64,000 bases of DNA from an uncultured Bacilli bacterium (GCA_934190785.1 CAKPTA010000002.1:59385-123384); one strand, 5' to 3'. Counted from the first letter of the stretch, positions 3,975 to 42,685 are shown. Notes: a model not told the origin generated them from the sequence alone. Translations and numbers: made by a program.

Positions 3975-4793
3975 TTAATACGATATTTCATAGTCATCAT
4001 AAAAATTCCTATCATAGTCTTGTTCTTTTTCTTTAAACCATCCTAGCTCTTCGTCCCATTCTATTTCATTTTTATTAAATCTATCAATATTGTTTATGAT
4101 AGATTTTTTTAAGTATCCAAATTTATTATCTATAATCTCATTATATTCATCTAAAAAATGTCTTTTAACCACACTTGATGTAATGTAATGCGTTATTGTC
4201 ACTATATTTGTAAATTCATATTGTTTTAATAACTGTTTAAATAGTTTATCATACTTATACAGTTCTATATCATCATCTTTTAAATAATTTCTTTTAATCA
4301 AATCTTTTGTAATTGAATGGTGTGTCTTATTTGATTTTAAATTGTCTAATTTTAAAGAATTTTTTTCATTTATGGTTTTATCTATTTTATCTATTTGTTC
4401 TTTAGTATTTTCTTTATTAGTATTTATTTGTGTGCCTTTTTCGGTATCTCCTTTAACGGCATCTCCCTTTTGGGTATCTGGATGATCTTTCTCTAATACA
4501 TTAACAGGAATTTCTCTAATTATGTAATCGTACTTATAATATCCTTTTTCTCCTCTTCCTTGTTCTCTTACCACATATCCTTTATTTATTAATTCACTCA
4601 ATATATTTCTAATTGCTTTCTTACTTTCTTTACTAACAGCAACTAAACCATTCAAAGAGTAATCCCAGTCCTCTGGTAAACTAAGCATGAATGATAATAA
4701 TCCTTTCGCTTTGTATGATAAATTTCTATCTTGTAAATGATAATTGCTCATAACAGTATAATTCTTCTGTTTTTCTATTTTAAACACTGCCAT
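3975..4793 (-). CDS. winged-helix (HTH_36/RepA_N-like) replication-initiator-like protein
   Basis: N-terminus YTVMSNYHLQDRNLSYKAKGLLSFMLSLPEDWDYSLNGL...ILSELINKGYV matches the pattern typical of Firmicute plasmid/element Rep-like HTH proteins. Confidence 0.5.
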   Translation of the reverse strand: MAVFKIEKQKNYTVMSNYHLQDRNLSYKAKGLLSFMLSLPEDWDYSLNGLVAVSKESKKAIRNILSELINKGYVVREQGRGEKGYYKYDYIIREIPVNVLEKDHPDTQKGDAVKGDTEKGTQINTNKENTKEQIDKIDKTINEKNSLKLDNLKSNKTHHSITKDLIKRNYLKDDDIELYKYDKLFKQLLKQYEFTNIVTITHYITSSVVKRHFLDEYNEIIDNKFGYLKKSIINNIDRFNKNEIEWDEELGWFKEKEQDYDRNFYDDYEISY

Positions 4794-4871: not shown

Positions 4872-6191
4872 TCAGTATTCCTGCATTAGTTCTTTTGGCT
4901 TTTTTAAAATTGAAATTTCTAACGAATTTGCATAATCTTCAAATTTACTTACAACTTCTTCTTCCATCTTAATAGTCACACGAACATAGATATTATATGT
5001 AGTTTCTATTGTGCTATGTCCTAACCTTTTTGATACTGCTTTTATATCAGCACCAGCTTCAATTAATCTTGTAGCGTGTGTATCTCTAAAGTCATGAAAT
5101 CTACAAGGTATACCTAATTCATAATGTATTACTTTAAATGGATGTTTACATGTATCTGTCCCTTCAAATACTCCATTGTTCTTTACAAATATTAGATGAA
5201 CTTCTGGTAATGCTACATCAATTTCTGCATAAGCATTCACTATTTTTGTTTCTGGTTTATTCGTGTAAGGATTCATAACTTCCTTAGCGTAATGTTTCAT
5301 ATATGAATCACCATATTGTTCTCTAAATATTTCTTGTTCATATTTAAATTCTTTTAGAGCATTTAATAATGTATCACCGATTTCAATTACTCTATGACTT
5401 GATGGAGTTTTACAATTGCCAAAATACCAAACTGTGGTTGAATTTCCTTCTATCAATCTCCTTTTTGTTCCACCAGATTGATTTTTTTTGATAATATTTC
5501 TATCTACTCTCAATGTTTTGTTTTCAAAATCTATATCTTCCCATGTTAATCCAAATACCTCTGATATACGCAATCCAGTATAATATGCAGTTAAAAAAGC
5601 ATAATAGATAGTATGACTATTTCTAAACCTATTAAAAATAATCTCTATTTCTTCTGGTGTAAATATATGTGCAGGATCAGCTTGGGGTACATCATACTTT
5701 GGTATTTTGACTTTTAATGCAGGATTAATTTTAATGAATCCAACTACATCAGTTGCATATCCTAATGCTCCTTTTAACACTTTTAAAATTGTTCGTAAAA
5801 AACTTTTAGAAAATCCTTTTTCTACATAAATATTATTTATAAATTCTTGTATCGTTGCTGACGTTATTTGTGATAATCTATAAAACCCTAATCTAGGTTT
5901 TATATGATTTTTAATAATATTCTCATAGGTAATTATAGTTGCGTATCTTAAATTAATGTTGCAATACATTTTCATCCAATAATCAAGATAATCAGAAAAC
6001 GATACTGTTGATGGTTTAAAAACATTACCAGTATTTGTATATTCGTTATATGCCTTCATACCAGCTTCATACGCTTCTTGTTTTGTTTTAAAACCAGACT
6101 TGTTAATAAACTTCCTTTTTCCATCTTGTGGTGCTATTTCGAATCTGTATTGATAGTAATTCCCCCTTTTCATTGTGTTCACTTGTGCCAT
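4872..6191 (-). CDS. int: tyrosine site-specific recombinase (phage integrase family)
   Basis: N-terminal arm-binding-like MKRGNYYQYRFEI. C-terminal catalytic region HDFRDTHATRLIEAGADIKAVSKRLGHSTIETTYNIYVRV (R..HxxR..Y). SD GAGGAGG. Confidence 0.9.
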   Translation of the reverse strand: MAQVNTMKRGNYYQYRFEIAPQDGKRKFINKSGFKTKQEAYEAGMKAYNEYTNTGNVFKPSTVSFSDYLDYWMKMYCNINLRYATIITYENIIKNHIKPRLGFYRLSQITSATIQEFINNIYVEKGFSKSFLRTILKVLKGALGYATDVVGFIKINPALKVKIPKYDVPQADPAHIFTPEEIEIIFNRFRNSHTIYYAFLTAYYTGLRISEVFGLTWEDIDFENKTLRVDRNIIKKNQSGGTKRRLIEGNSTTVWYFGNCKTPSSHRVIEIGDTLLNALKEFKYEQEIFREQYGDSYMKHYAKEVMNPYTNKPETKIVNAYAEIDVALPEVHLIFVKNNGVFEGTDTCKHPFKVIHYELGIPCRFHDFRDTHATRLIEAGADIKAVSKRLGHSTIETTYNIYVRVTIKMEEEVVSKFEDYANSLEISILKKPKELMQEY

Positions 6192-6225
6192 AAATTTTTT
6201 CCTCCTCTAAATCTTTTAGAGAACG

Positions 6226-6250
6226 AAAAAAATCAACACGAATGTTGATT
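6226..6250 (-). terminator. rho-independent terminator about 20 nt upstream of the int SD
   Basis: Minus-sense AATCAACA-TTCG-TGTTGATT followed by a T-run. It is the only terminator-like structure between the secA stop and int. Confidence 0.6.
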
Positions 6251-6258
6251 TCATGATT

Positions 6259-6368
6259 TTGTGTGCATAACACAAACCCTTTATTTATATGGGTTAAATA
6301 GATTTGTGTGCATGATTTTTTATTTTTCGCACACAAATTGCACACAATTTAATGATTTTGCACACAAT
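6259..6368. repeat. five copies of TGCACACAA(A)TT (3 direct, 2 inverted): candidate arm-type Int/Xis or regulator sites
   Basis: Direct copies start at 6329, 6340 and 6360. Inverted copies lie at 6259-6268 and 6304-6313. In addition, the 10-mer ACAAACCCTT occurs at 6272-6281 and 6398-6407. Confidence 0.7.
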
Positions 6369-6417
6369 TTAGTATTTTTTTGACTAATTCCAATCGTACA
6401 AACCCTTATAAAATAAG

Positions 6418-8919
6418 CTATTTACCACAGCATTGTTTGTACTTCTTACCAGAGCCACAAGGACATGGGTCATTTCTACCTATTTTGCTTACACGTTTTG
6501 GTGCGGCCTTTTTTACTTTATTACTATCATTTACAGCCTCACCTTTAGCCACTTGTTTTCTCTCAATATTTTGACGAATTTCTGACTTAACTAAATACAT
6601 AGTAATTTCTTTATCAATTAAATTTAATAAACTATCAAAAAGTTCATATCCTTCAGTTGTATAAGCTCGTAATGGATTTTCTTGAGCATATCCTCTTAAA
6701 TGGATTCCCTCTCTTAAATGTGCCATCGTATTAATATGATTCATCCAATGTGTATCTATAACACGTAAGCTAATAGCTTTTTCAAATTCATTACATATTT
6801 CAAGTGGAATATCTTTTAATTTTGTTTCATACTCATCACTTATTATATTATACAAATATTCTGTTAATTCATCAGCATCCTTTTTATTTACATCATTTAT
6901 AGTTAATGTTTTTTTCAATAAATGCTCATTAGCAAACTCTAATATTTCACTATAATCTGTTTCTGTTAAATATCCCTCTGGAGCTATATGGCTTGTTACA
7001 AGCTCATTAATATAGTTCTCTATATTTTCTAAAACGTTTTCATGTATAGATTCAGAATCTAAAATTTCATTTCTTTTTTCATAAATGTATTCTCTTTGTT
7101 GATTTATAACATCATCATATTGAAGTAATGTTTTACGTATATCAAAGTTATTTCCTTCAACTCTTTTTTGCGCTGATTCAATAGAGCTTGATAACATTTT
7201 ATTTCTAATAGATGCATCATCACTAAATCCTACTTTAGCGAGCATCATTTTTGCTCTGTCAGTTCCAAAACGAACCATTAAATCATCTTCAAAAGAAACA
7301 CAAAATTGAGATGCACCAGGATCACCTTGACGACCAGAACGTCCACGTAGCTGATTATCAATACGTCTTGATTCATGTCTTTCGGTTCCAATAACAAATA
7401 ATCCACCTAGTTGTTTTACTTCATCATCTATTTTAATATCAGTTCCACGTCCAGCCATATTTGTCGCAATTGTTACTGCACCTTTGGCACCTGCTTTTGC
7501 TATAATTTCTGCCTCTCTAGCATTATTTTTAGCATTTAAAACTTCATGAGGAATGTGTTCACGTTTTAACATTGAACTAATTAATTCACTTGTTTCAACG
7601 GCAATGGTACCAACAAGTACTGGTTGTCCTGTTGAATGACGTTCCTTTATTTCCTCTACAATAGCTTTATATTTTCCTTTTTTTGTTGCAAAAAGTAAAT
7701 CACCATAATCTATTCTTGCAACTGGCTTATTAGTTGGAATTGTAATTACATACATGTTATATATATCCCTAAATTCCTCTTCTTCTGTTTTTGCAGTACC
7801 TGTCATACCTGATAATTTGCTATACATTCTAAATAAATTTTGGAATGTAATTGTTGCAAGAGTACGAGTTTCTTGTTCTATTTCTACGCCCTCTTTAGCC
7901 TCTATTGCCTGATGTAATCCATCAGAATAATTTCTTCCTGCCATTAATCTTCCTGTAAATGGATCTACAATAACTATCTTTCCATCTTTAACAACATAAT
8001 CAATGTCATTTTTCATAACATAATTTGCTTTTAAGGCTTGATTAATATAATGAACTAGAGTTGTATGATTTATATCATATAAATTATCAACCTTAAAGTA
8101 TTTTTCTCCAGCTTTTATACCCTCATCATCTAGAGTAACAGCTTTGGTTTTTTCGTCATATATATAACCATTATTTTCTTTTAATTGTTTAACAAATTTA
8201 TCAGCATCTATATATAAATTGGCAGATTCCATTTTACCACCAGATATAATAAGTGGTGTTCTAGCTTCATCTATTAATACTGAATCAACTTCATCAATAA
8301 TAACAAAATTATATTCGCGTGCTACTCTGTCTTTAGCATTTACAACCATATTATCACGAAGATAATCAAAACCTAATTCATTATTAGTTGTATACATAAT
8401 GTCAGAGTTATATGCTTCTCTTTTTTCTGATGGAGTAAGTTCACGGTAATTTACCCCTACTGTTAAACCTAAGAAACGATATATATTACCCATCCAATTT
8501 GCATCACGTCCAGCAAGATATTCATTTACAGTTACAATATGAACACCTTTTTTTGTTAATGCATTTAAATAAGCTGGCATAGTAGAAGTTAATGTTTTAC
8601 CTTCACCTGTACGCATTTCAGCAATATTACCATAATGAATTGCAAAACCACCAACTATTTGAACATAATATGGTTTTTCTCCTATAACACGATATGCTGC
8701 CTCACGAGCTACAGCAAAAGCTTCTATTTTTATATCCTCTAAAGTTTCACCATTCTCTAAACGACTTTGAAATTCAATAGTTTTATTTTTTAATTCATCA
8801 TCACTTAAATTAGCCATATCATTTTCTAATTCTAAAACTTCATTGGCTAATTTTTTAAATTTTTCTAATTCTTTATATTCATGATCAAAAATCTTTTTTA
8901 AAAAATTCAATTTTATCAT
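6418..8919 (-). CDS. secA: preprotein translocase ATPase SecA
   Basis: 833 aa. Motifs MRTGEGKTL, IIDEVDSVLIDEARTPLIISG, TNMAGRGTDI, and the C-terminal Zn motif CPCGSGKKYKQCCGK. Confidence 0.97.
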   Translation of the reverse strand: MIKLNFLKKIFDHEYKELEKFKKLANEVLELENDMANLSDDELKNKTIEFQSRLENGETLEDIKIEAFAVAREAAYRVIGEKPYYVQIVGGFAIHYGNIAEMRTGEGKTLTSTMPAYLNALTKKGVHIVTVNEYLAGRDANWMGNIYRFLGLTVGVNYRELTPSEKREAYNSDIMYTTNNELGFDYLRDNMVVNAKDRVAREYNFVIIDEVDSVLIDEARTPLIISGGKMESANLYIDADKFVKQLKENNGYIYDEKTKAVTLDDEGIKAGEKYFKVDNLYDINHTTLVHYINQALKANYVMKNDIDYVVKDGKIVIVDPFTGRLMAGRNYSDGLHQAIEAKEGVEIEQETRTLATITFQNLFRMYSKLSGMTGTAKTEEEEFRDIYNMYVITIPTNKPVARIDYGDLLFATKKGKYKAIVEEIKERHSTGQPVLVGTIAVETSELISSMLKREHIPHEVLNAKNNAREAEIIAKAGAKGAVTIATNMAGRGTDIKIDDEVKQLGGLFVIGTERHESRRIDNQLRGRSGRQGDPGASQFCVSFEDDLMVRFGTDRAKMMLAKVGFSDDASIRNKMLSSSIESAQKRVEGNNFDIRKTLLQYDDVINQQREYIYEKRNEILDSESIHENVLENIENYINELVTSHIAPEGYLTETDYSEILEFANEHLLKKTLTINDVNKKDADELTEYLYNIISDEYETKLKDIPLEICNEFEKAISLRVIDTHWMNHINTMAHLREGIHLRGYAQENPLRAYTTEGYELFDSLLNLIDKEITMYLVKSEIRQNIERKQVAKGEAVNDSNKVKKAAPKRVSKIGRNDPCPCGSGKKYKQCCGK

Positions 8920-9073: not shown

Positions 9074-9604
9074 TTATTTGACATCAATTATTCCATAATT
9101 AGAATCTTTTCTTCTATAAATAACTGATATATCATCTGTTTCTATATTTTTAAATACAAAGAAATCATGTCCTAATAAATTCATTTGAAGAATAGCTTCT
9201 TCTTCATCCATTGGTTTTGTATCTATAACTTTTCTCTTTACTATTTTATTTTCTAAAGCTTCTTCAGCTGTCAAATCAAATTCTACAAACATAGATTCTA
9301 TCTCTTTGGTATTTCTATTATGCATTCTTGTTTTATTTTTTCTTATTTGTCTTTCTAATTTTTCAAGTACTAAATCAATAGCAGCATATAAATCTTTATT
9401 CGCAGCTTCTGCCCTAAGTACCGCTTTCTTTATTGGAATTGTAACTTCAATTATATCATCAATTCCATCTGTTCGGATTACGACATTAGCAGATATATCT
9501 TCTGGAGATTCAAAATACTTGTTAAGTTTTCCAATTTTGCTTTCAACATAATCCTTAATAGAGTTTGTTAATTCTAATTTGTTTGCACGTATATTAAATT
9601 TCAT
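9074..9604 (-). CDS. hpf: ribosome hibernation promoting factor (long form)
   Basis: MKFNIRANKLELTNSIKDYVESKIGKL S30AE-type N-domain plus C-terminal dimerisation domain. ATG at 9604 is preferred over the upstream GTG at 9613. Confidence 0.9.
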   Translation of the reverse strand: MKFNIRANKLELTNSIKDYVESKIGKLNKYFESPEDISANVVIRTDGIDDIIEVTIPIKKAVLRAEAANKDLYAAIDLVLEKLERQIRKNKTRMHNRNTKEIESMFVEFDLTAEEALENKIVKRKVIDTKPMDEEEAILQMNLLGHDFFVFKNIETDDISVIYRRKDSNYGIIDVK

Positions 9605-9680
9605 GCACACCACATCCTTTCTCTACGTTTATATTATAGCAAAAAATATAATTATTTTCAAATTAGAAAAAAAAGACCAC

Positions 9681-9893
9681 TTATACCAAAGTAGCTTTTA
9701 TTTCTACAACATTTTTTGCTTGAAGTCCTTTATCAGTTCTTACAAGTTCAAATTCAACGTATTGACCCTCAACTAAAGTTTTATATCCTTCAGTTAATAT
9801 TGATGAGTAATGAACAAATATATCTTCATGATCATTATATTCAATAAACCCATATCCTTTGTCATTATTAAACCATTTAACTTTACCTCTCAC
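9681..9893 (-). CDS. cold-shock protein (chromosomal)
   Basis: GKVKWFNNDKGYGFIE and DIFVHYSSI motifs. The GTG start at 9893 lies 9 nt after AAGGGAG; the track's upstream TTG start would sit upstream of the predicted TSS. Confidence 0.85.
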   Translation of the reverse strand: MRGKVKWFNNDKGYGFIEYNDHEDIFVHYSSILTEGYKTLVEGQYVEFELVRTDKGLQAKNVVEIKATLV

Positions 9894-9930
9894 AAAAACA
9901 GTCTCCCTTCTATTACAATTGTACAATACT

Positions 9931-9960
9931 ACTATAACAGCACTACTACATGTAATTCAA
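9931..9960 (-). promoter_or_regulatory. csp promoter TTGAAT-18-TATAGT with TG extension
   Basis: Read on the reverse strand: -35 at 9955-9960, -10 at 9931-9936. Confidence 0.5.
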
Positions 9961-10215
9961 TTTTTTTCGGCCGATAAAAATCGACAATATCTACAGACGA
10001 ATTATCATATCTGTAAAGCGCTATAATCATAACAGAAAACTATCTGCATACACTAAATAATTGCTTTTTTTGTCATTTTTAATGCATAAATGGTATCGTC
10101 TATATTCTGATGGAAGTTTTAGAGATAATTAGATCTTATTAAGCAGCAGAATTTACCAATAATGAAAACAAATTAATTTTATTTGATATTCTTAATTCAG
10201 ATAGGAGTAGAAGAT

Positions 10216-10824
10216 ATGAAAAATAAGTTTTTAAATTATGCTATCAATACAATTCATATTAATAATCCATCTTATAATGATACAAAACTTGCAGAAATTA
10301 GATATGGTTTAGAAGGAATATATTTAAGTATTACAAAGCTTATTATCATATTTTTGTTAGCTATATTATTAAATATACTAAAAGAAATGATCTTCATGCT
10401 AATAATATTTAATATATTAAGAACAACAGGATTCGGATTACATGCTACAAAAAGTTGGATATGTCTAGTTTCATCATCAGTTATATTTCTTGGAGGACCA
10501 CTACTAGCAAAAATAATCATAATAAACAATTTATTAAAAACTATTCTATCAATTACTTCCGTTATTCTTATTTATAAATATGCTCCAGCAGACACAAAAA
10601 AAAGACCTCTAATTAAAGAAAAAAAGAGGAATATATATAAATTTATTACAACAATAAAATGTATTATATTAAATATATTCATTATATTCATTAAAAATAA
10701 TATAATAACAAATTTAATTATTTTAGGTATATACGCGGAAGTAATTGTTATACTTCCAAAAACATATAAACTATTCAACATGCCATATGACAATTATAAA
10801 AACTATAAACCTTTATATGATTAA
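10216..10824 (+). CDS. agrB: AgrB-type accessory gene regulator peptidase (AIP maturation/export)
   Basis: Polytopic membrane protein. LRTTGFGLHATKSWIC places His and Cys 7 residues apart, as with S. aureus AgrB H77/C84. ATG at 10216 follows a GGAG SD. Confidence 0.85.
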   Translation: MKNKFLNYAINTIHINNPSYNDTKLAEIRYGLEGIYLSITKLIIIFLLAILLNILKEMIFMLIIFNILRTTGFGLHATKSWICLVSSSVIFLGGPLLAKIIIINNLLKTILSITSVILIYKYAPADTKKRPLIKEKKRNIYKFITTIKCIILNIFIIFIKNNIITNLIILGIYAEVIVILPKTYKLFNMPYDNYKNYKPLYD

Positions 10825-10866
10825 ACATTTAAATGTTTAATATAGAGAATAGAAGGAGGATGTATT

Positions 10867-10992
10867 ATGGGAAATTTATTAGCAAAAATTTTTGATTTTA
10901 TTGGAAATACCAGTGCTAGTTTATCTATCAATGAATGTAGTTTTTGGTTACTAGATGAACCAGAAATGCCAAAAAGTTTAATAGAAAAATAA
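10867..10992 (+). CDS. agrD: AgrD-type autoinducing peptide precursor (41 aa, below ORF-track cutoff)
   Basis: SD AGGAGGA 6 nt upstream. The protein is MGNLLAKIFDFIGNTSASLSINECSFWLLDEPEMPKSLIEK: amphipathic leader, single Cys, and a DEPEMPKSL tail like S. aureus DEVEVPKEL. Confidence 0.7.
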   Translation: MGNLLAKIFDFIGNTSASLSINECSFWLLDEPEMPKSLIEK

Positions 10993-11013
10993 GAGTATAA
11001 CTCTTATTTTTTT
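10986..11013. terminator. bidirectional terminator shared by agrD and the convergent kinase gene
   Basis: AATAAGAG-TATAA-CTCTTATT stem flanked by A-run/T-run. Overlaps both stop codons. Confidence 0.6.
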
Positions 11014-12323
11014 AAATCTATTAATAATCTTTGAACATAATACATACCATTCATTTCTCTTTCTTGACTTAAATGCTTATTTCTATCCATTATGTCTTTT
11101 ACAATAGATAATCCATATCCGTGATTTGAACCCTTTGTTGTATATCTTTCCTGATTAATTTTATCTAGTTGAACTTTTCCTTTATAAGTATTAGATATCT
11201 GTATAGTAATCTGTTTTTCATCACATTTAAACTCAACAATTAAATATTTATTATCTGACTCCATTGAAGCTTGCATAGCATTATCAAGATATACGCCTAA
11301 AGCCATACTTATATCTTGTAAATTATCTTCTAAAAGTTTTTTTGGTAATTCTTTTGGAATTGATTTTTCATCAATAACGTCAACATAAACCTTTATATCA
11401 TTCTTAACCATTTCACATATTTTATAATGCAATAAACCTTTTATACCTATATCAGGAAATTTAGATAACTTTATCAACCACTGTGTATTTTCATTTGACG
11501 GTTTATTCTTAAGCAACTTATTTATATAATTAAGAGCATCTTTATTTTTAGGGTCAATTTTATCTCGAATTATTATCAATTGATTTTCGTATTCATGTTG
11601 CCATTTACTTTTCTCTACTACTTCATGTTCATAAGTTTTTGCGTACTTGAACAAACTATCATATTCTTTTTTTATTCTATTTTTATCTGAATTTTCTTTA
11701 AAGAATCCCATCACTAATATTATCACAGATAGTATAACAATTACATTCATTATAATATCTATAATTGTAATATCATGTGTAGTATTTCTAAGTAGAAAGA
11801 ACCATAAAGTTACAACACACATAACAATTGTAACAAATGAATTTATTAATTTCTTATTACTATACCACTTTGATATGCTATATAATAAATCGTCTACTTT
11901 TTTTATATGTAAAAAAAAGTATGATAGTAATCCTATAAGAAAATTAGCTGACAAAATACATAAACAACTTGTTCTAAAGTTTTCTATTGAAATCTTTAGA
12001 ATACCTAGATAAAATATTCCTACAACACTATCAAACAATGCAAAAATAATATAAATCAAAAAAATTGTTATTAATAACGTACTAAAGCGTTCTTTGAATA
12101 TAAATTTAAATAATAATGCAGCTATTAACATTTTTGAAATAGTTCTTATCATTACTGGAACGTTTAATATCAATCCGCTACTAAGTATAGCTAGCAATAA
12201 TAATGATAATATAAAAATGAAATACTTTTTCTTATCAAAATTATATGATTTTCTTATAAAATATTCCCCCAATATAAGTTTATTTATAAAATCAACAATT
12301 ACCCAACTAAACCATATCGACAT
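11004..12323 (-). CDS. AgrC-like (HPK10) sensor histidine kinase
   Basis: About 6-7 TM segments in the first 200 aa. H-box KWQHEYENQL and ATP-lid GSNHGYGLSIVKDIM. Confidence 0.8.
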   Translation of the reverse strand: MSIWFSWVIVDFINKLILGEYFIRKSYNFDKKKYFIFILSLLLLAILSSGLILNVPVMIRTISKMLIAALLFKFIFKERFSTLLITIFLIYIIFALFDSVVGIFYLGILKISIENFRTSCLCILSANFLIGLLSYFFLHIKKVDDLLYSISKWYSNKKLINSFVTIVMCVVTLWFFLLRNTTHDITIIDIIMNVIVILSVIILVMGFFKENSDKNRIKKEYDSLFKYAKTYEHEVVEKSKWQHEYENQLIIIRDKIDPKNKDALNYINKLLKNKPSNENTQWLIKLSKFPDIGIKGLLHYKICEMVKNDIKVYVDVIDEKSIPKELPKKLLEDNLQDISMALGVYLDNAMQASMESDNKYLIVEFKCDEKQITIQISNTYKGKVQLDKINQERYTTKGSNHGYGLSIVKDIMDRNKHLSQEREMNGMYYVQRLLIDLKK

Positions 12324-13029
12324 AATCTTTTAAGCCTTTCTTTTTTTCACGGGACAATAAATTTGTTGTATCATCATTTTCAAAATAGATTAAACTTTCT
12401 TTCCAATCTACAGTTTTAATCTTTTTTAAATTAACTAAACAGCTTCGGTGTGATAAATAAAACCCTTTACCAAGTTCTTTTTGCATTTCATTCATAGTTT
12501 TTCCAACTGAGAAATCACCATATGTTGTACGAATTATACATTTTCTATCAACAGTATCTTTTTCAACACATAAAATGTCATCAATACATATTCTATGTGT
12601 TATACCATTTGCTTTAAAGAAAATAACTTTTTTTTCATTTACTTTTTCTATTGCTCGAGTTAAAATGTCTCTCAAATTTTCTTCGCATTCATTATATTTT
12701 GATATAAAATCAAGAAGCATTATTTGTGCTTTTAATGCTTCATATCCTAATTCTGTATGAGATGTTACTATTATTATTATACTATTCCAATCTTCTTCAC
12801 GAATTTTTCTTGCTATATCTATACCAGAAATTGAATCTTTCATCTCAATATCTAATATATATATTTTTGATGGAAGGTTATTTTTTATCATTTCTTCAAA
12901 ATCATCATCATATTTTGTAAATTCATGAATTTTATAATCACTATCATTATTCATATACATTTTATCGATTACAAGAGTTATTTTATCTCTAAACTTTTTT
13001 TCATCGTCGCATACTATAAAATTTATCAT
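12307..13029 (-). CDS. LytTR-family response regulator (AgrA-like)
   Basis: Receiver domain (CDDE, IYILDIEM) plus C-terminal LytTR domain (ICIDDILCVEKD..RKCIIRT..YLSHRSCLVNL). 17-nt overlap with the kinase gene. Confidence 0.85.
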   Translation of the reverse strand: MINFIVCDDEKKFRDKITLVIDKMYMNNDSDYKIHEFTKYDDDFEEMIKNNLPSKIYILDIEMKDSISGIDIARKIREEDWNSIIIIVTSHTELGYEALKAQIMLLDFISKYNECEENLRDILTRAIEKVNEKKVIFFKANGITHRICIDDILCVEKDTVDRKCIIRTTYGDFSVGKTMNEMQKELGKGFYLSHRSCLVNLKKIKTVDWKESLIYFENDDTTNLLSREKKKGLKDYVDMV

Positions 13030-13057
13030 AAAATCACTCCCAAACGAAAATCATTTC

Positions 13058-13084
13058 AAATAGTTTGCAGGCAGTTAACTATTC
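13058..13084 (-). promoter_or_regulatory. 8-bp dyad/hairpin at the predicted TSS of the RR-HK operon
   Basis: Minus-sense GAATAGTT-AACTGCCTGCA-AACTATTT. A structurally equivalent element sits at 31859-31888 upstream of the paralogous regulator. Confidence 0.4.
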
Positions 13085-13090
13085 TTTTTT

Positions 13091-13119
13091 ATATTACCAT
13101 AATGAGTGATAAAAATCAA
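13091..13119 (-). promoter_or_regulatory. promoter TTGATT-17-TAATAT (TG-extended) of the RR-HK operon
   Basis: Reverse strand: -35 at 13114-13119, -10 at 13091-13096, TGG at 13097-13099. Confidence 0.55.
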
Positions 13120-13143
13120 CTAATTGTTAATATTTACAACTAA
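13115..13143 (-). promoter_or_regulatory. LytTR-box-like direct repeats TTAGTTGTA-N11-TTAGTTGAT
   Basis: Two 9-mers sharing TTAGTTG, 20 bp start to start. The promoter-proximal one overlaps the -35. Confidence 0.45.
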
Positions 13144-13151
13144 AATTCGAG

Positions 13152-13700
13152 TTATTTTTCATCAAATATTTCATGCTTAATTCTTTGTTCAATTCTTTTA
13201 TCTTTAAAGAGATTAACATATTTATTTATTTTATCTTTATTAAGCAGCTTTGATATTTTTCTATAACTATTTATTATTTGTTCATATTTTTCATATTCCA
13301 TATTTGTTTTACTACGAACAACTTCAATTAATAATCTTTCTAAATCATATATTCTAATATTGTAATGTTTATAAGTGACAACATTAGCTCCAACACTATA
13401 TAGTGAATCTGTCATAAATATTTGTTTTACATTTTCATCTTTTATTTTTCTATCCTTTTGTTTTGTTGCTACATAGTATTTTGTATGTTCTTCTTTTATT
13501 AAAGAATAACATATACAAGCTGTTTCTAATGTTAAAATTACATTAGGATGTTTTTTTACAAGTACTTCTAATGGATCATATTTTTCTTCGGTTGAATATA
13601 CTCCTTTTGCTACTAAATACAAAGTTTTATCCTGTAATTTCTTTTTAATTTGATAGTCACTTAAATTTTGTTTTTGTAAATTTTTATATAAAAGTATCAT
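13152..13700 (-). CDS. AbiEi-like (type IV TA antitoxin family) protein, solitary
   Basis: LYLVAKGVYS, ETACICYSL and IRIYDLERLLIEVVRSK resemble AbiEi signatures (rGvY, ETAL..hgl, ERTLlD). ATG at 13700 follows GGTGAG. No AbiEii gene is adjacent. Confidence 0.4.
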   Translation of the reverse strand: MILLYKNLQKQNLSDYQIKKKLQDKTLYLVAKGVYSTEEKYDPLEVLVKKHPNVILTLETACICYSLIKEEHTKYYVATKQKDRKIKDENVKQIFMTDSLYSVGANVVTYKHYNIRIYDLERLLIEVVRSKTNMEYEKYEQIINSYRKISKLLNKDKINKYVNLFKDKRIEQRIKHEIFDEK

Positions 13701-13762
13701 GTCACTCACCAATAATATTATAATATAAAATTTATTGTTTTACAATGTCATACCGACATTTA

Positions 13763-31007: not shown

Positions 31008-31084
31008 TGGGGCGCGGTGTGGGAATCGAACCCACGCATAATGGAACCACAATCCACCGTGTTAACCACTTCACCAACCACGCC
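31008..31084 (-). tRNA. tRNA-His (GTG anticodon) with encoded G-1 and CCA
   Basis: Hand-folded cloverleaf. Acceptor GCGTGGT/ACCGCGC with an extra 5' G opposite C73; anticodon arm GTGGA-TTGTGGT-TCCAT; T arm GTGGG-TTCGATT-CCCAC; 3' CCA. Confidence 0.9.
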
Positions 31085-42630: not shown

Positions 42631-42685
42631 ACTCATTCTCCTTCCGCCATGACTTAAATAAGTCATAGTAATTTAATGCTTTTAT

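Follow-up and report, generated by a model that had tools for sequence, protein, structure and literature searches.

The question raised by this locus is whether a 41-codon open reading frame (ORF) following a membrane-protein gene encodes the precursor of a peptide pheromone and, together with its neighbors, makes up a quorum-sensing system of the agr type. The locus lies in a stretch of 64,000 nucleotides (nt) from an uncultured Bacilli bacterium (GCA_934190785.1, CAKPTA010000002.1:59385-123384), the whole of which is referred to here as the window. A first interpretation, made without database searches (the sequence-only reading), had proposed an AgrD-type precursor completing an agr-like locus, and family tests on all four components are in agreement with it. 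The convergently arranged genes for AgrB, AgrD, a sensor kinase and a response regulator all test as agr-type at the level of sequence. Hence the window very probably contains a complete agr-type autoinducing peptide (AIP) quorum-sensing module of an uncultured, AT-rich gut bacterium from the “Bacilli/Tenericutes” group of metagenome-assembled genomes (MAGs), and the locus is a genuine, fairly ordinary member of the well-known agr family.

The ORF occupies positions 10867-10992 of the plus strand, starting 42 nt past the agrB stop (10824), and its translation, MGNLLAKIFDFIGNTSASLSINECSFWLLDEPEMPKSLIEK, is exactly the one quoted originally. It is preceded by AAGGAGGA at 10853-10860, and the strong Shine-Dalgarno sequence AGGAGGA claimed for it is present 6 nt before the ATG. 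The product consists of an amphipathic leader (residues 1-14), a variable core (15-29), and a conserved follower, DEPEMPKSLIEK (30-41). The hydrophobic moment of the leader, 0.56, is reached by only 0.8% of shuffled sequences, which bears out its description as amphipathic. In a comparison with the NCBIfam model TIGR04223 (“AgrD family cyclic lactone autoinducer peptide”) the peptide scores 38.6 bits with a cut-off of 19, covering model positions 1-37 of 38; the same model is matched by 43 of 45 sequences tested, that is, 44 family members and AgrD of Clostridium acetobutylicum. Thus, the traits of an AgrD are found together here: a same-strand ORF directly 3′ of agrB, an amphipathic leader, a central Cys, and an acidic, Pro-containing follower starting with D-E.

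A 41-codon ORF is short, and as small ORFs are plentiful in AT-rich DNA, it might be a chance ORF that is never translated. This explanation is effectively refuted already, given the TIGR04223 score exceeding the curated cut-off, the strong Shine-Dalgarno sequence, and conservation: among 80 species-level related loci (66 of them with at least 1.5 kb of sequence after agrB) and the window itself, 77 of the 81 sequences scanned have a homologous small ORF after agrB, its tail and Cys being invariant. Moreover, gene calls for the exact 41-amino acid (aa) peptide exist on 46 public contigs (NCBI, ENA, Logan), and its homologues bear an NCBI name. The ORF had been presented as unannotated; this holds for the supplied gene track and fails for public data.

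The product of the upstream gene scores 114.3 bits against Pfam PF04647 (cut-off 23), thus passing the check that had been proposed for it, and 135 bits against the NCBIfam AgrB-like model, and has five hydrophobic segments. Its motif LHATKSWIC contains His76 and Cys83 seven residues apart, as had been noted by analogy with H77/C84 of AgrB from Staphylococcus aureus. Since no solved structure related to AgrB was found, the residues were checked against the S. aureus sequence (33% identity, E = 2e-19), where R69, G74, H76, and C83 pair with R70, G75, H77, and C84, all listed as required for proteolysis (PMC10196373).

The kinase matches HATPase_c_5 (PF14501) with 55.9 bits, and its best solved-structure matches are the kinase modules of S. 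aureus AgrC, 6e52 and 4bxi. It combines a polytopic sensor (5-7 hydrophobic segments within residues 1-207), an H-box of the form H-[DE]-[YF]-x-N, and HATPase_c_5, that is, the features of AgrC-type (HPK10) kinases; the H-box kwqHEYeNql is aligned to kfrHDYvNil of AgrC (6e52), confirming the assignment to HPK10 that had been made from HEYENQL. The regulator comprises a Response_reg domain (PF00072, 40.1 bits), with Asp60 in ILDIEM, and a LytTR domain (PF04397, 55.4 bits), ComE and AgrA being its best matches in PDB. Judging by these domains, the kinase and the regulator probably work like AgrC and AgrA: the polytopic sensor would detect the peptide, and the kinase would phosphorylate the LytTR regulator.

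Both domain content and coordinates place the regulator upstream of the kinase on the minus strand, as described previously, with a 17-nt overlap of the two genes. The locus thus consists of convergent units with the regulator before the kinase, and the contrast drawn earlier with the classical agrBDCA operon stands. The stop codons of agrD (10990-10992) and the kinase gene (11004-11006) are separated by 11 nt, and both fall within a hairpin at 10986-11010. The hairpin has a folding energy of –13.8 kcal/mol on either strand (z = –4.7 and –4.9), and none of 200 shuffled sequences is as stable. A consensus terminator scan of positions 9900-13300 found no terminator; it missed the hairpin because it requires at least three G-C pairs and the stem is AT-rich. 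A gap of 42 nt, a strong Shine-Dalgarno sequence, and a terminator placed after agrD make co-transcription of agrB and agrD likely, and both operons would end at this one bidirectional hairpin.

The layout recurs in the related loci. The conserved gene order is secA, hpf, and csp on one strand, agrB-agrD on the other, and then the facing kinase and regulator, a convergent kinase being found within 1.2 kb in 64 of 66 loci, with the exceptions of L036, where there is an insertion, and L076; a hairpin formed by an A-tract, stem, and T-tract lies between the convergent stops in nearly all of them. Given this synteny, the convergent arrangement with a shared bidirectional terminator, pointed out initially for the window, is a lineage-wide, vertically inherited trait. 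The AgrB homologues come almost entirely from uncultured gut “Bacilli/Tenericutes” MAGs. The named carriers are Acholeplasma sp. CAG:878, Clostridium sp. CAG:762, and Candidatus Faecisoma, Coprosoma, and Pelethosoma, the latter three placed by NCBI in Mycoplasmatota incertae sedis; we presume that the named relatives correspond to the GTDB order RF39. It is conceivable, if quite improbable, that the convergent layout is functional and not neutral: agrBD transcripts reading through the weak AT-rich hairpin would be antisense to the kinase-regulator operon, creating negative feedback or bistability, and the same layout would force the modules specifying signal and receptor to stay matched across approximately 0.7 kb of freely recombining conserved DNA.

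Several observations weigh against the assignment of the locus to a complete agr module, those on regulation being given below together with the candidate sites. The locus is known from genes alone, and its host is uncultured. The Pfam model of staphylococcal AgrD (PF05931, “Staphylococcal AgrD protein”), which the sequence-only reading had suggested as a check, gives 19.3 bits, below the gathering score of 22.7. The S. aureus AgrB reference used in the residue alignment was a sequence entered by hand. The staphylococcal equivalogs are missed, with full-length alignments scoring 73.3 with a cut-off of 500 for AgrC (NF046015) and 66.9 with a cut-off of 400 for AgrA (NF046049); as these scores are far below the cut-offs, the kinase and the regulator of the window are distant relatives of the staphylococcal proteins and not orthologue-level matches. 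Finally, one related locus, L076, carries agrBD without a kinase and a regulator.

Upstream of agrB, two half-sites with the consensus TTTGTCTGAAAT exactly 21 bp apart are found in 28 of 79 related loci, while pairs at other offsets (10-35 bp) occur in 0-5 loci each and shuffled sequences yield 0.95 on average and 4 at most. All but one of the 21-bp dyads are situated at –136 to –178 from the agrB ATG. Two direct repeats with this spacing are characteristic of LytTR regulators, as in the sites of AgrA, ComE, and PlnC. Since the loci that supplied the half-site pattern also supplied the counts, only the offset control is independent. In the window, the columns at 10062-10092 align with the dyad sites of the relatives, one of which (L048) has a perfect dyad, TGTCTGAAAT twice. 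The second repeat (R2, 10083-10092, TGCATAAATG) is a good half-site and the only one of the two to score well with the position weight matrix (8.0); the first (R1, 10062-10071, TGCTTTTTTT) is degenerate. The distance from the second repeat to a potential –10 element was also analyzed and shows no sharp peak; closer to agrB, a TGnTAnnAT block is kept in the alignment of 13 upstream regions.

From these sites, the regulator would activate agrBD by way of the direct repeats, which are 21 bp apart and lie approximately 150 bp before agrB. For the family, agrBD is therefore likely to be auto-induced; for this particular strain, due to the degenerate R1, this is uncertain. A circuit that is not auto-inducing here, with agrBD constitutively expressed from the proximal extended –10 element and the regulator acting elsewhere or weakly, appears rather unlikely to us: it would be consistent with the single good half-site in the window, with the conserved TGnTAnnAT element adjoining agrB, and with the likewise T-rich R1 in another contig of the same species (L082), yet clear dyads occupy the homologous position in the relatives, and none of the four genes is disrupted, all of them being under strong purifying selection. 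LytTR sites elsewhere, e.g., at S. aureus P3, tolerate one imperfect repeat, which also counts against this possibility. Upstream of the regulator-kinase operon, a LytTR dyad is absent in the window and present in one of 59 relatives; as this operon has a candidate sigma-70-like promoter of its own and no repeats, probably only signal production is auto-induced.

On the adverse side, no convincing regulon member was found by scanning the whole window with the family half-site weight matrix. Its best match (approximately 6335-6366, minus strand) comprises TGTGTGCAA repeats beside a phage-type integrase gene, which are probable integrase arm sites and not agr targets. Likewise, no RNAIII-like or other RNA was identified at the locus by Rfam models, applied to the whole window at the gathering score and to 9600-13300 at E up to 1.

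One more candidate regulator site, the motif AAAWTTCGACAAAAT approximately 235 bp upstream of agrB (9975-9990 in the window), was rejected, being on the csp side in the alignment and downstream of a minus-strand –35/–10 pair. The motif is present in approximately 45 of 80 csp-agrB intergenic regions, sometimes as a tandem pair with a 10-bp period, and, on the opposite strand, approximately 55 nt separate it from the csp start that lies downstream; we tentatively assign it to the csp leader or promoter and not to agr.

The next step is the mature signal. The amphipathic leader would bring AgrD to the membrane, where, by homology, AgrB (His76/Cys83) would remove the follower DEPEMPKSLIEK and close a thiolactone between Cys24 and Leu29. 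The size of the ring follows from the cleavage position, and for its prediction 79 precursors were aligned, anchored on the tail. In 74 of them the Cys and exactly five variable hydrophobic residues precede the almost invariant D-E-P-E-[C/M]-P-[K/E]-S-L-I-K; of the remaining five, three have six residues, and two have an extra Cys inside the ring. Positions C+1 to C+5 have column entropies of 2.5-3.2 bits, with a drop to 0.17 and 0 bits at D and E. AgrD of C. acetobutylicum (MNLKEQ...GKCVLVTLYEPKMPEELLKENIDK, taken from the supplement of PMC10301443) aligns gap-free between the Cys and the E-P-x-M-P motif, in the register CVLVTL|YEPKMP; its AIP is given, as predicted or assigned, as [CVLVTL], six-membered rings are predicted for its relatives, and a six-residue CWFWSY peptide has been detected natively in Ruminiclostridium cellulolyticum. 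In S. aureus, AgrB cuts M32|D33, directly before the essential D33/E34 (PMC10196373).

Because of this spacing, the entropy drop at D, the clostridial register, and the staphylococcal cut before D-E, AgrB is predicted to cleave between Leu29 and Asp30, so that a six-residue ring, [CSFWLL], is probable. The sequence-only reading had arrived at the same ring by aligning the tail to S. aureus, with the caution that five residues are usual and the product not certain; it was right, the caution being justified, and the new data lean to six. The same system with a canonical five-residue ring [CSFWL], cut at Leu28|Leu29, is unlikely. Its follower would open with a variable hydrophobic position. It would conform to the ring size that is by far the commonest among characterized AIPs, but variability is no lower immediately before Asp than elsewhere in the ring, and invariance sets in precisely at D-E. 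The gap-free register with the six-ring clostridial class and the staphylococcal cleavage position are against it as well. The intact mass cannot separate NE[CSFWLL] from INE[CSFWL], since the two are isobaric, both with a computed [M+H]+ of 993.4499.

As for the leader, it would be removed by a peptidase, and a tail-less product would probably rearrange to a lactam, as in clostridia. Thus the active signal might be not a thiolactone, but the tail-less homodetic cyclo(CSFWLL), formed by a spontaneous S-to-N acyl shift after leader removal at the Cys. We regard this as a possibility, albeit a doubtful one. This is the native clostridial route, shown for R. cellulolyticum, and tails are absent from both AIPs found natively in clostridia to date; most of the family shows conservation just ahead of the Cys (A-x-x-G-S-Q-A-C), which fits a protease site and not a specificity-bearing tail. 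On the contrary, within the species of the window these residues differ between pherotypes (SINE, SNV, SVA, SAE), which fits an exocyclic specificity tail.

The precursors show further variation. The follower contains a second Cys (DEPECPKSLIK) in 50 of 79 family members, replaced by Met in the subclade of the window (DEPEMPKSLIEK). Locus L026 has two agrD-like ORFs in tandem (5514-5633 and 5980-6099). In locus L054, which is outside the 79 aligned, the AgrD (5593-5715) has Ser in place of Cys at the cyclization position (…GSEASLVVIFDEEETPKSLIK); by analogy with Staphylococcus pseudintermedius, this predicts a lactone.

Among contigs that belong to the same species (nucleotide identity of the flanks 99-100%), four different AgrD cores are found: CSFWLL in the window, CIMWAL in L084-L086, CIVWWY in L081-L083, and CVVWVL in L087. 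In a sliding window, the nucleotide identity is down to 71-85% in the agrD core and 42-55% in 11650-12330, that is, the kinase sensor. At the protein level, the identity between pherotypes is 24-44% for the sensor (residues 1-215), 94-97% for the catalytic half of the kinase, 99-100% for the regulator, and 87-100% for AgrB. AgrB does not track the pherotype: in the window and L084 the AgrB proteins differ by one residue, while the cores are CSFWLL and CIMWAL, and between the two variable islands these contigs are 99-100% identical. We interpret the sequences as at least four putative pherotypes, each a matched pair of AgrD core and kinase sensor alleles that diverges strongly from the other pairs. 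As the operons converge, the two variable islands are approximately 0.7 kb apart, with conserved kinase sequence between them.

Two contigs deviate from this pattern of islands. Compared to the window, L081 has 92-95% identity across the agr locus (10436-13100) even outside the islands, with flanks at 97-100%; together with L084, this looks like old, balanced alleles with later recombination. In L083 (approximately 7047-7800, equivalent to 12936-13160 of the window) the regulator is called as 215 aa, and the region of its start and promoter is only 34-39% identical to that of the window, a strain-level replacement at the regulator-kinase promoter.

The features of the locus are collected in Table 1.

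Table 1. Coordinates of the features of the agr-type locus in the window.
Feature	Position	Strand	Description	Basis
agrB	10216-10824	+	polytopic membrane cysteine peptidase/cyclase, 202 aa	Pfam and NCBIfam AgrB, catalytic residues aligned
agrD Shine-Dalgarno sequence AGGAGGA	10854-10860	+	6 nt before ATG	read from sequence
agrD	10867-10992	+	41-aa autoinducing peptide precursor	TIGR04223, conserved position, family alignment
Predicted six-residue thiolactone ring CSFWLL	10936-10953	+	codons Cys24-Leu29	inferred from family register
Bidirectional intrinsic-terminator-like hairpin	10986-11010	both		A-tract, 11-bp stem, T-tract
Kinase gene	11004-12323	–	439 aa	H-box HEYENQL, His243
Kinase catalytic half	11004-11678	–	DHp and GHKL ATPase	His243 codon 11595-11597
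Kinase N-terminal polytopic sensor	11679-12323	–	residues 1-215	hypervariable between same-species strains
Response regulator gene	12307-13029	–	240 aa, first gene of its operon	receiver (Asp60) and LytTR
LytTR-type direct-repeat position	10062-10092	+	two 10-bp units, 21 bp apart	homologous to family site
Extended –10-like element TGATATTCT	10184-10192	+	candidate basal agrBD promoter	immediately 5′ of agrB Shine-Dalgarno sequence
Candidate sigma-70-type promoter	13091-13119	–	regulator-kinase operon, role inferred	TTGATT, 17 nt, TGgTAATAT

The surroundings of the module vary between the related loci. In L076, a gene for a zinc-ribbon/PrsW-family intramembrane protease follows agrBD (5785-6957), so that this may be an orphan agrBD, or the protease may be a candidate processing enzyme. 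Two kinase genes in tandem are found in L013 and L018, and in L044 the plus strand carries an additional regulator-kinase pair further downstream. Immediately 5′ of the regulator operon of the window there is an ORF of 186 aa (13152-13712, minus strand), with no significant Pfam or NCBIfam family and a weak match to the DUF2204 nucleotidyltransferase (E = 0.039); only 9 of the 80 related loci have it in the same place (named are L001, L003, L004, L010, L031, L055, L063, and L065).

On the other side, just downstream of secA, are minus-strand genes for an HTH protein (3975-4793) and a phage-type integrase (4872-6191; Phage_integrase, SAM-like, and Arm-DNA-binding domains). The direct and inverted repeats TGTGTGCAA / TTGCACACA at approximately 6250-6366, between secA and the integrase gene, are probably integrase arm sites. 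At the same site, the same-species contig L081 has a 122-aa remnant, and L085 and L086 carry a hybrid kinase and an acyltransferase between secA and hpf; this site is a hot spot of integration that varies from strain to strain. Over the whole window, Rfam yields two matches and no more: a tRNA (31011-31083, minus strand, 60.7 bits) and an L31-Firmicutes ribosomal-protein leader (42638-42668, minus strand, 34.8 bits), the latter just above the gathering score.

Among known systems, the agr locus of C. acetobutylicum shares with this one the separation of agrBD from the two-component genes, the follower [Y/D]-E-P-x-M-P six residues after the Cys, and the lack of an RNAIII-like effector. It differs from the locus described here, where a single terminator is shared by two converging units and the regulator gene comes before that of the kinase, where no CA_C0082-type LanM-like gene is adjoining and the flanks are the family-less 186-aa ORF and a P-type ATPase gene, and where the host belongs to an uncultured gut “Tenericutes/Bacilli” lineage and not to Clostridium. 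With S. aureus agrBDCA the locus has in common the four protein families, the R/G/H/C residues of AgrB, the H-box and ATPase of the kinase alignable to AgrC structures, a LytTR-type regulator with direct-repeat sites (candidate ones in this case), and within-species groups with a hypervariable AgrD core and kinase sensor. Unlike S. aureus, it has no single B-D-C-A operon and no divergent RNAIII, and the Cys is one residue further from the tail. Moreover, AgrB is outside the variable unit and does not co-vary with the pherotype, and the hypervariable segments, contiguous in S. aureus agr, are split by approximately 0.7 kb of conserved sequence encoding the catalytic part of the kinase.

A close analog of the predicted ring is Rc-AIP1 of R. 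cellulolyticum (CWFWSY), also a six-residue, Cys-first, Trp-rich hydrophobic core from an AgrB/AgrD pair; its product has been shown to be a tail-less lactam, whereas the peptide of the window is known from its gene alone. The entries named “cyclic lactone autoinducer peptide” in NCBI (Acholeplasma sp. CAG:878, Candidatus Faecisoma, Candidatus Pelethosoma, and Bacilli/Tenericutes MAGs) represent the same peptide family, locus position, and lineage, and are machine annotations only.

Split agrBD and agrCA operons, the absence of RNAIII, and six-residue rings have already been published for clostridia. In the literature search, whose coverage was incomplete so that a prior description is possible, we found neither agr in the RF39 lineage nor a convergent layout of agrBD and regulator-kinase genes. 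What is added here is the lineage-wide conservation, the shared terminator, the support for a six-residue ring, and four putative pherotypes with split variable modules.

For annotation, these results mean that AgrD-type ORFs can be recovered with TIGR04223 where the Pfam model fails. The lineage is known only from metagenomes, and a conserved, chromosomally fixed module with predictable signals that can be synthesized provides a concrete experimental handle on it. An AgrB shared between pherotypes, together with the split variable modules, offers a natural contrast to S. aureus in the question of how the matching of signal and receptor is maintained, and four allele pairs in one species suggest strain-level interference in the gut, as among staphylococci.

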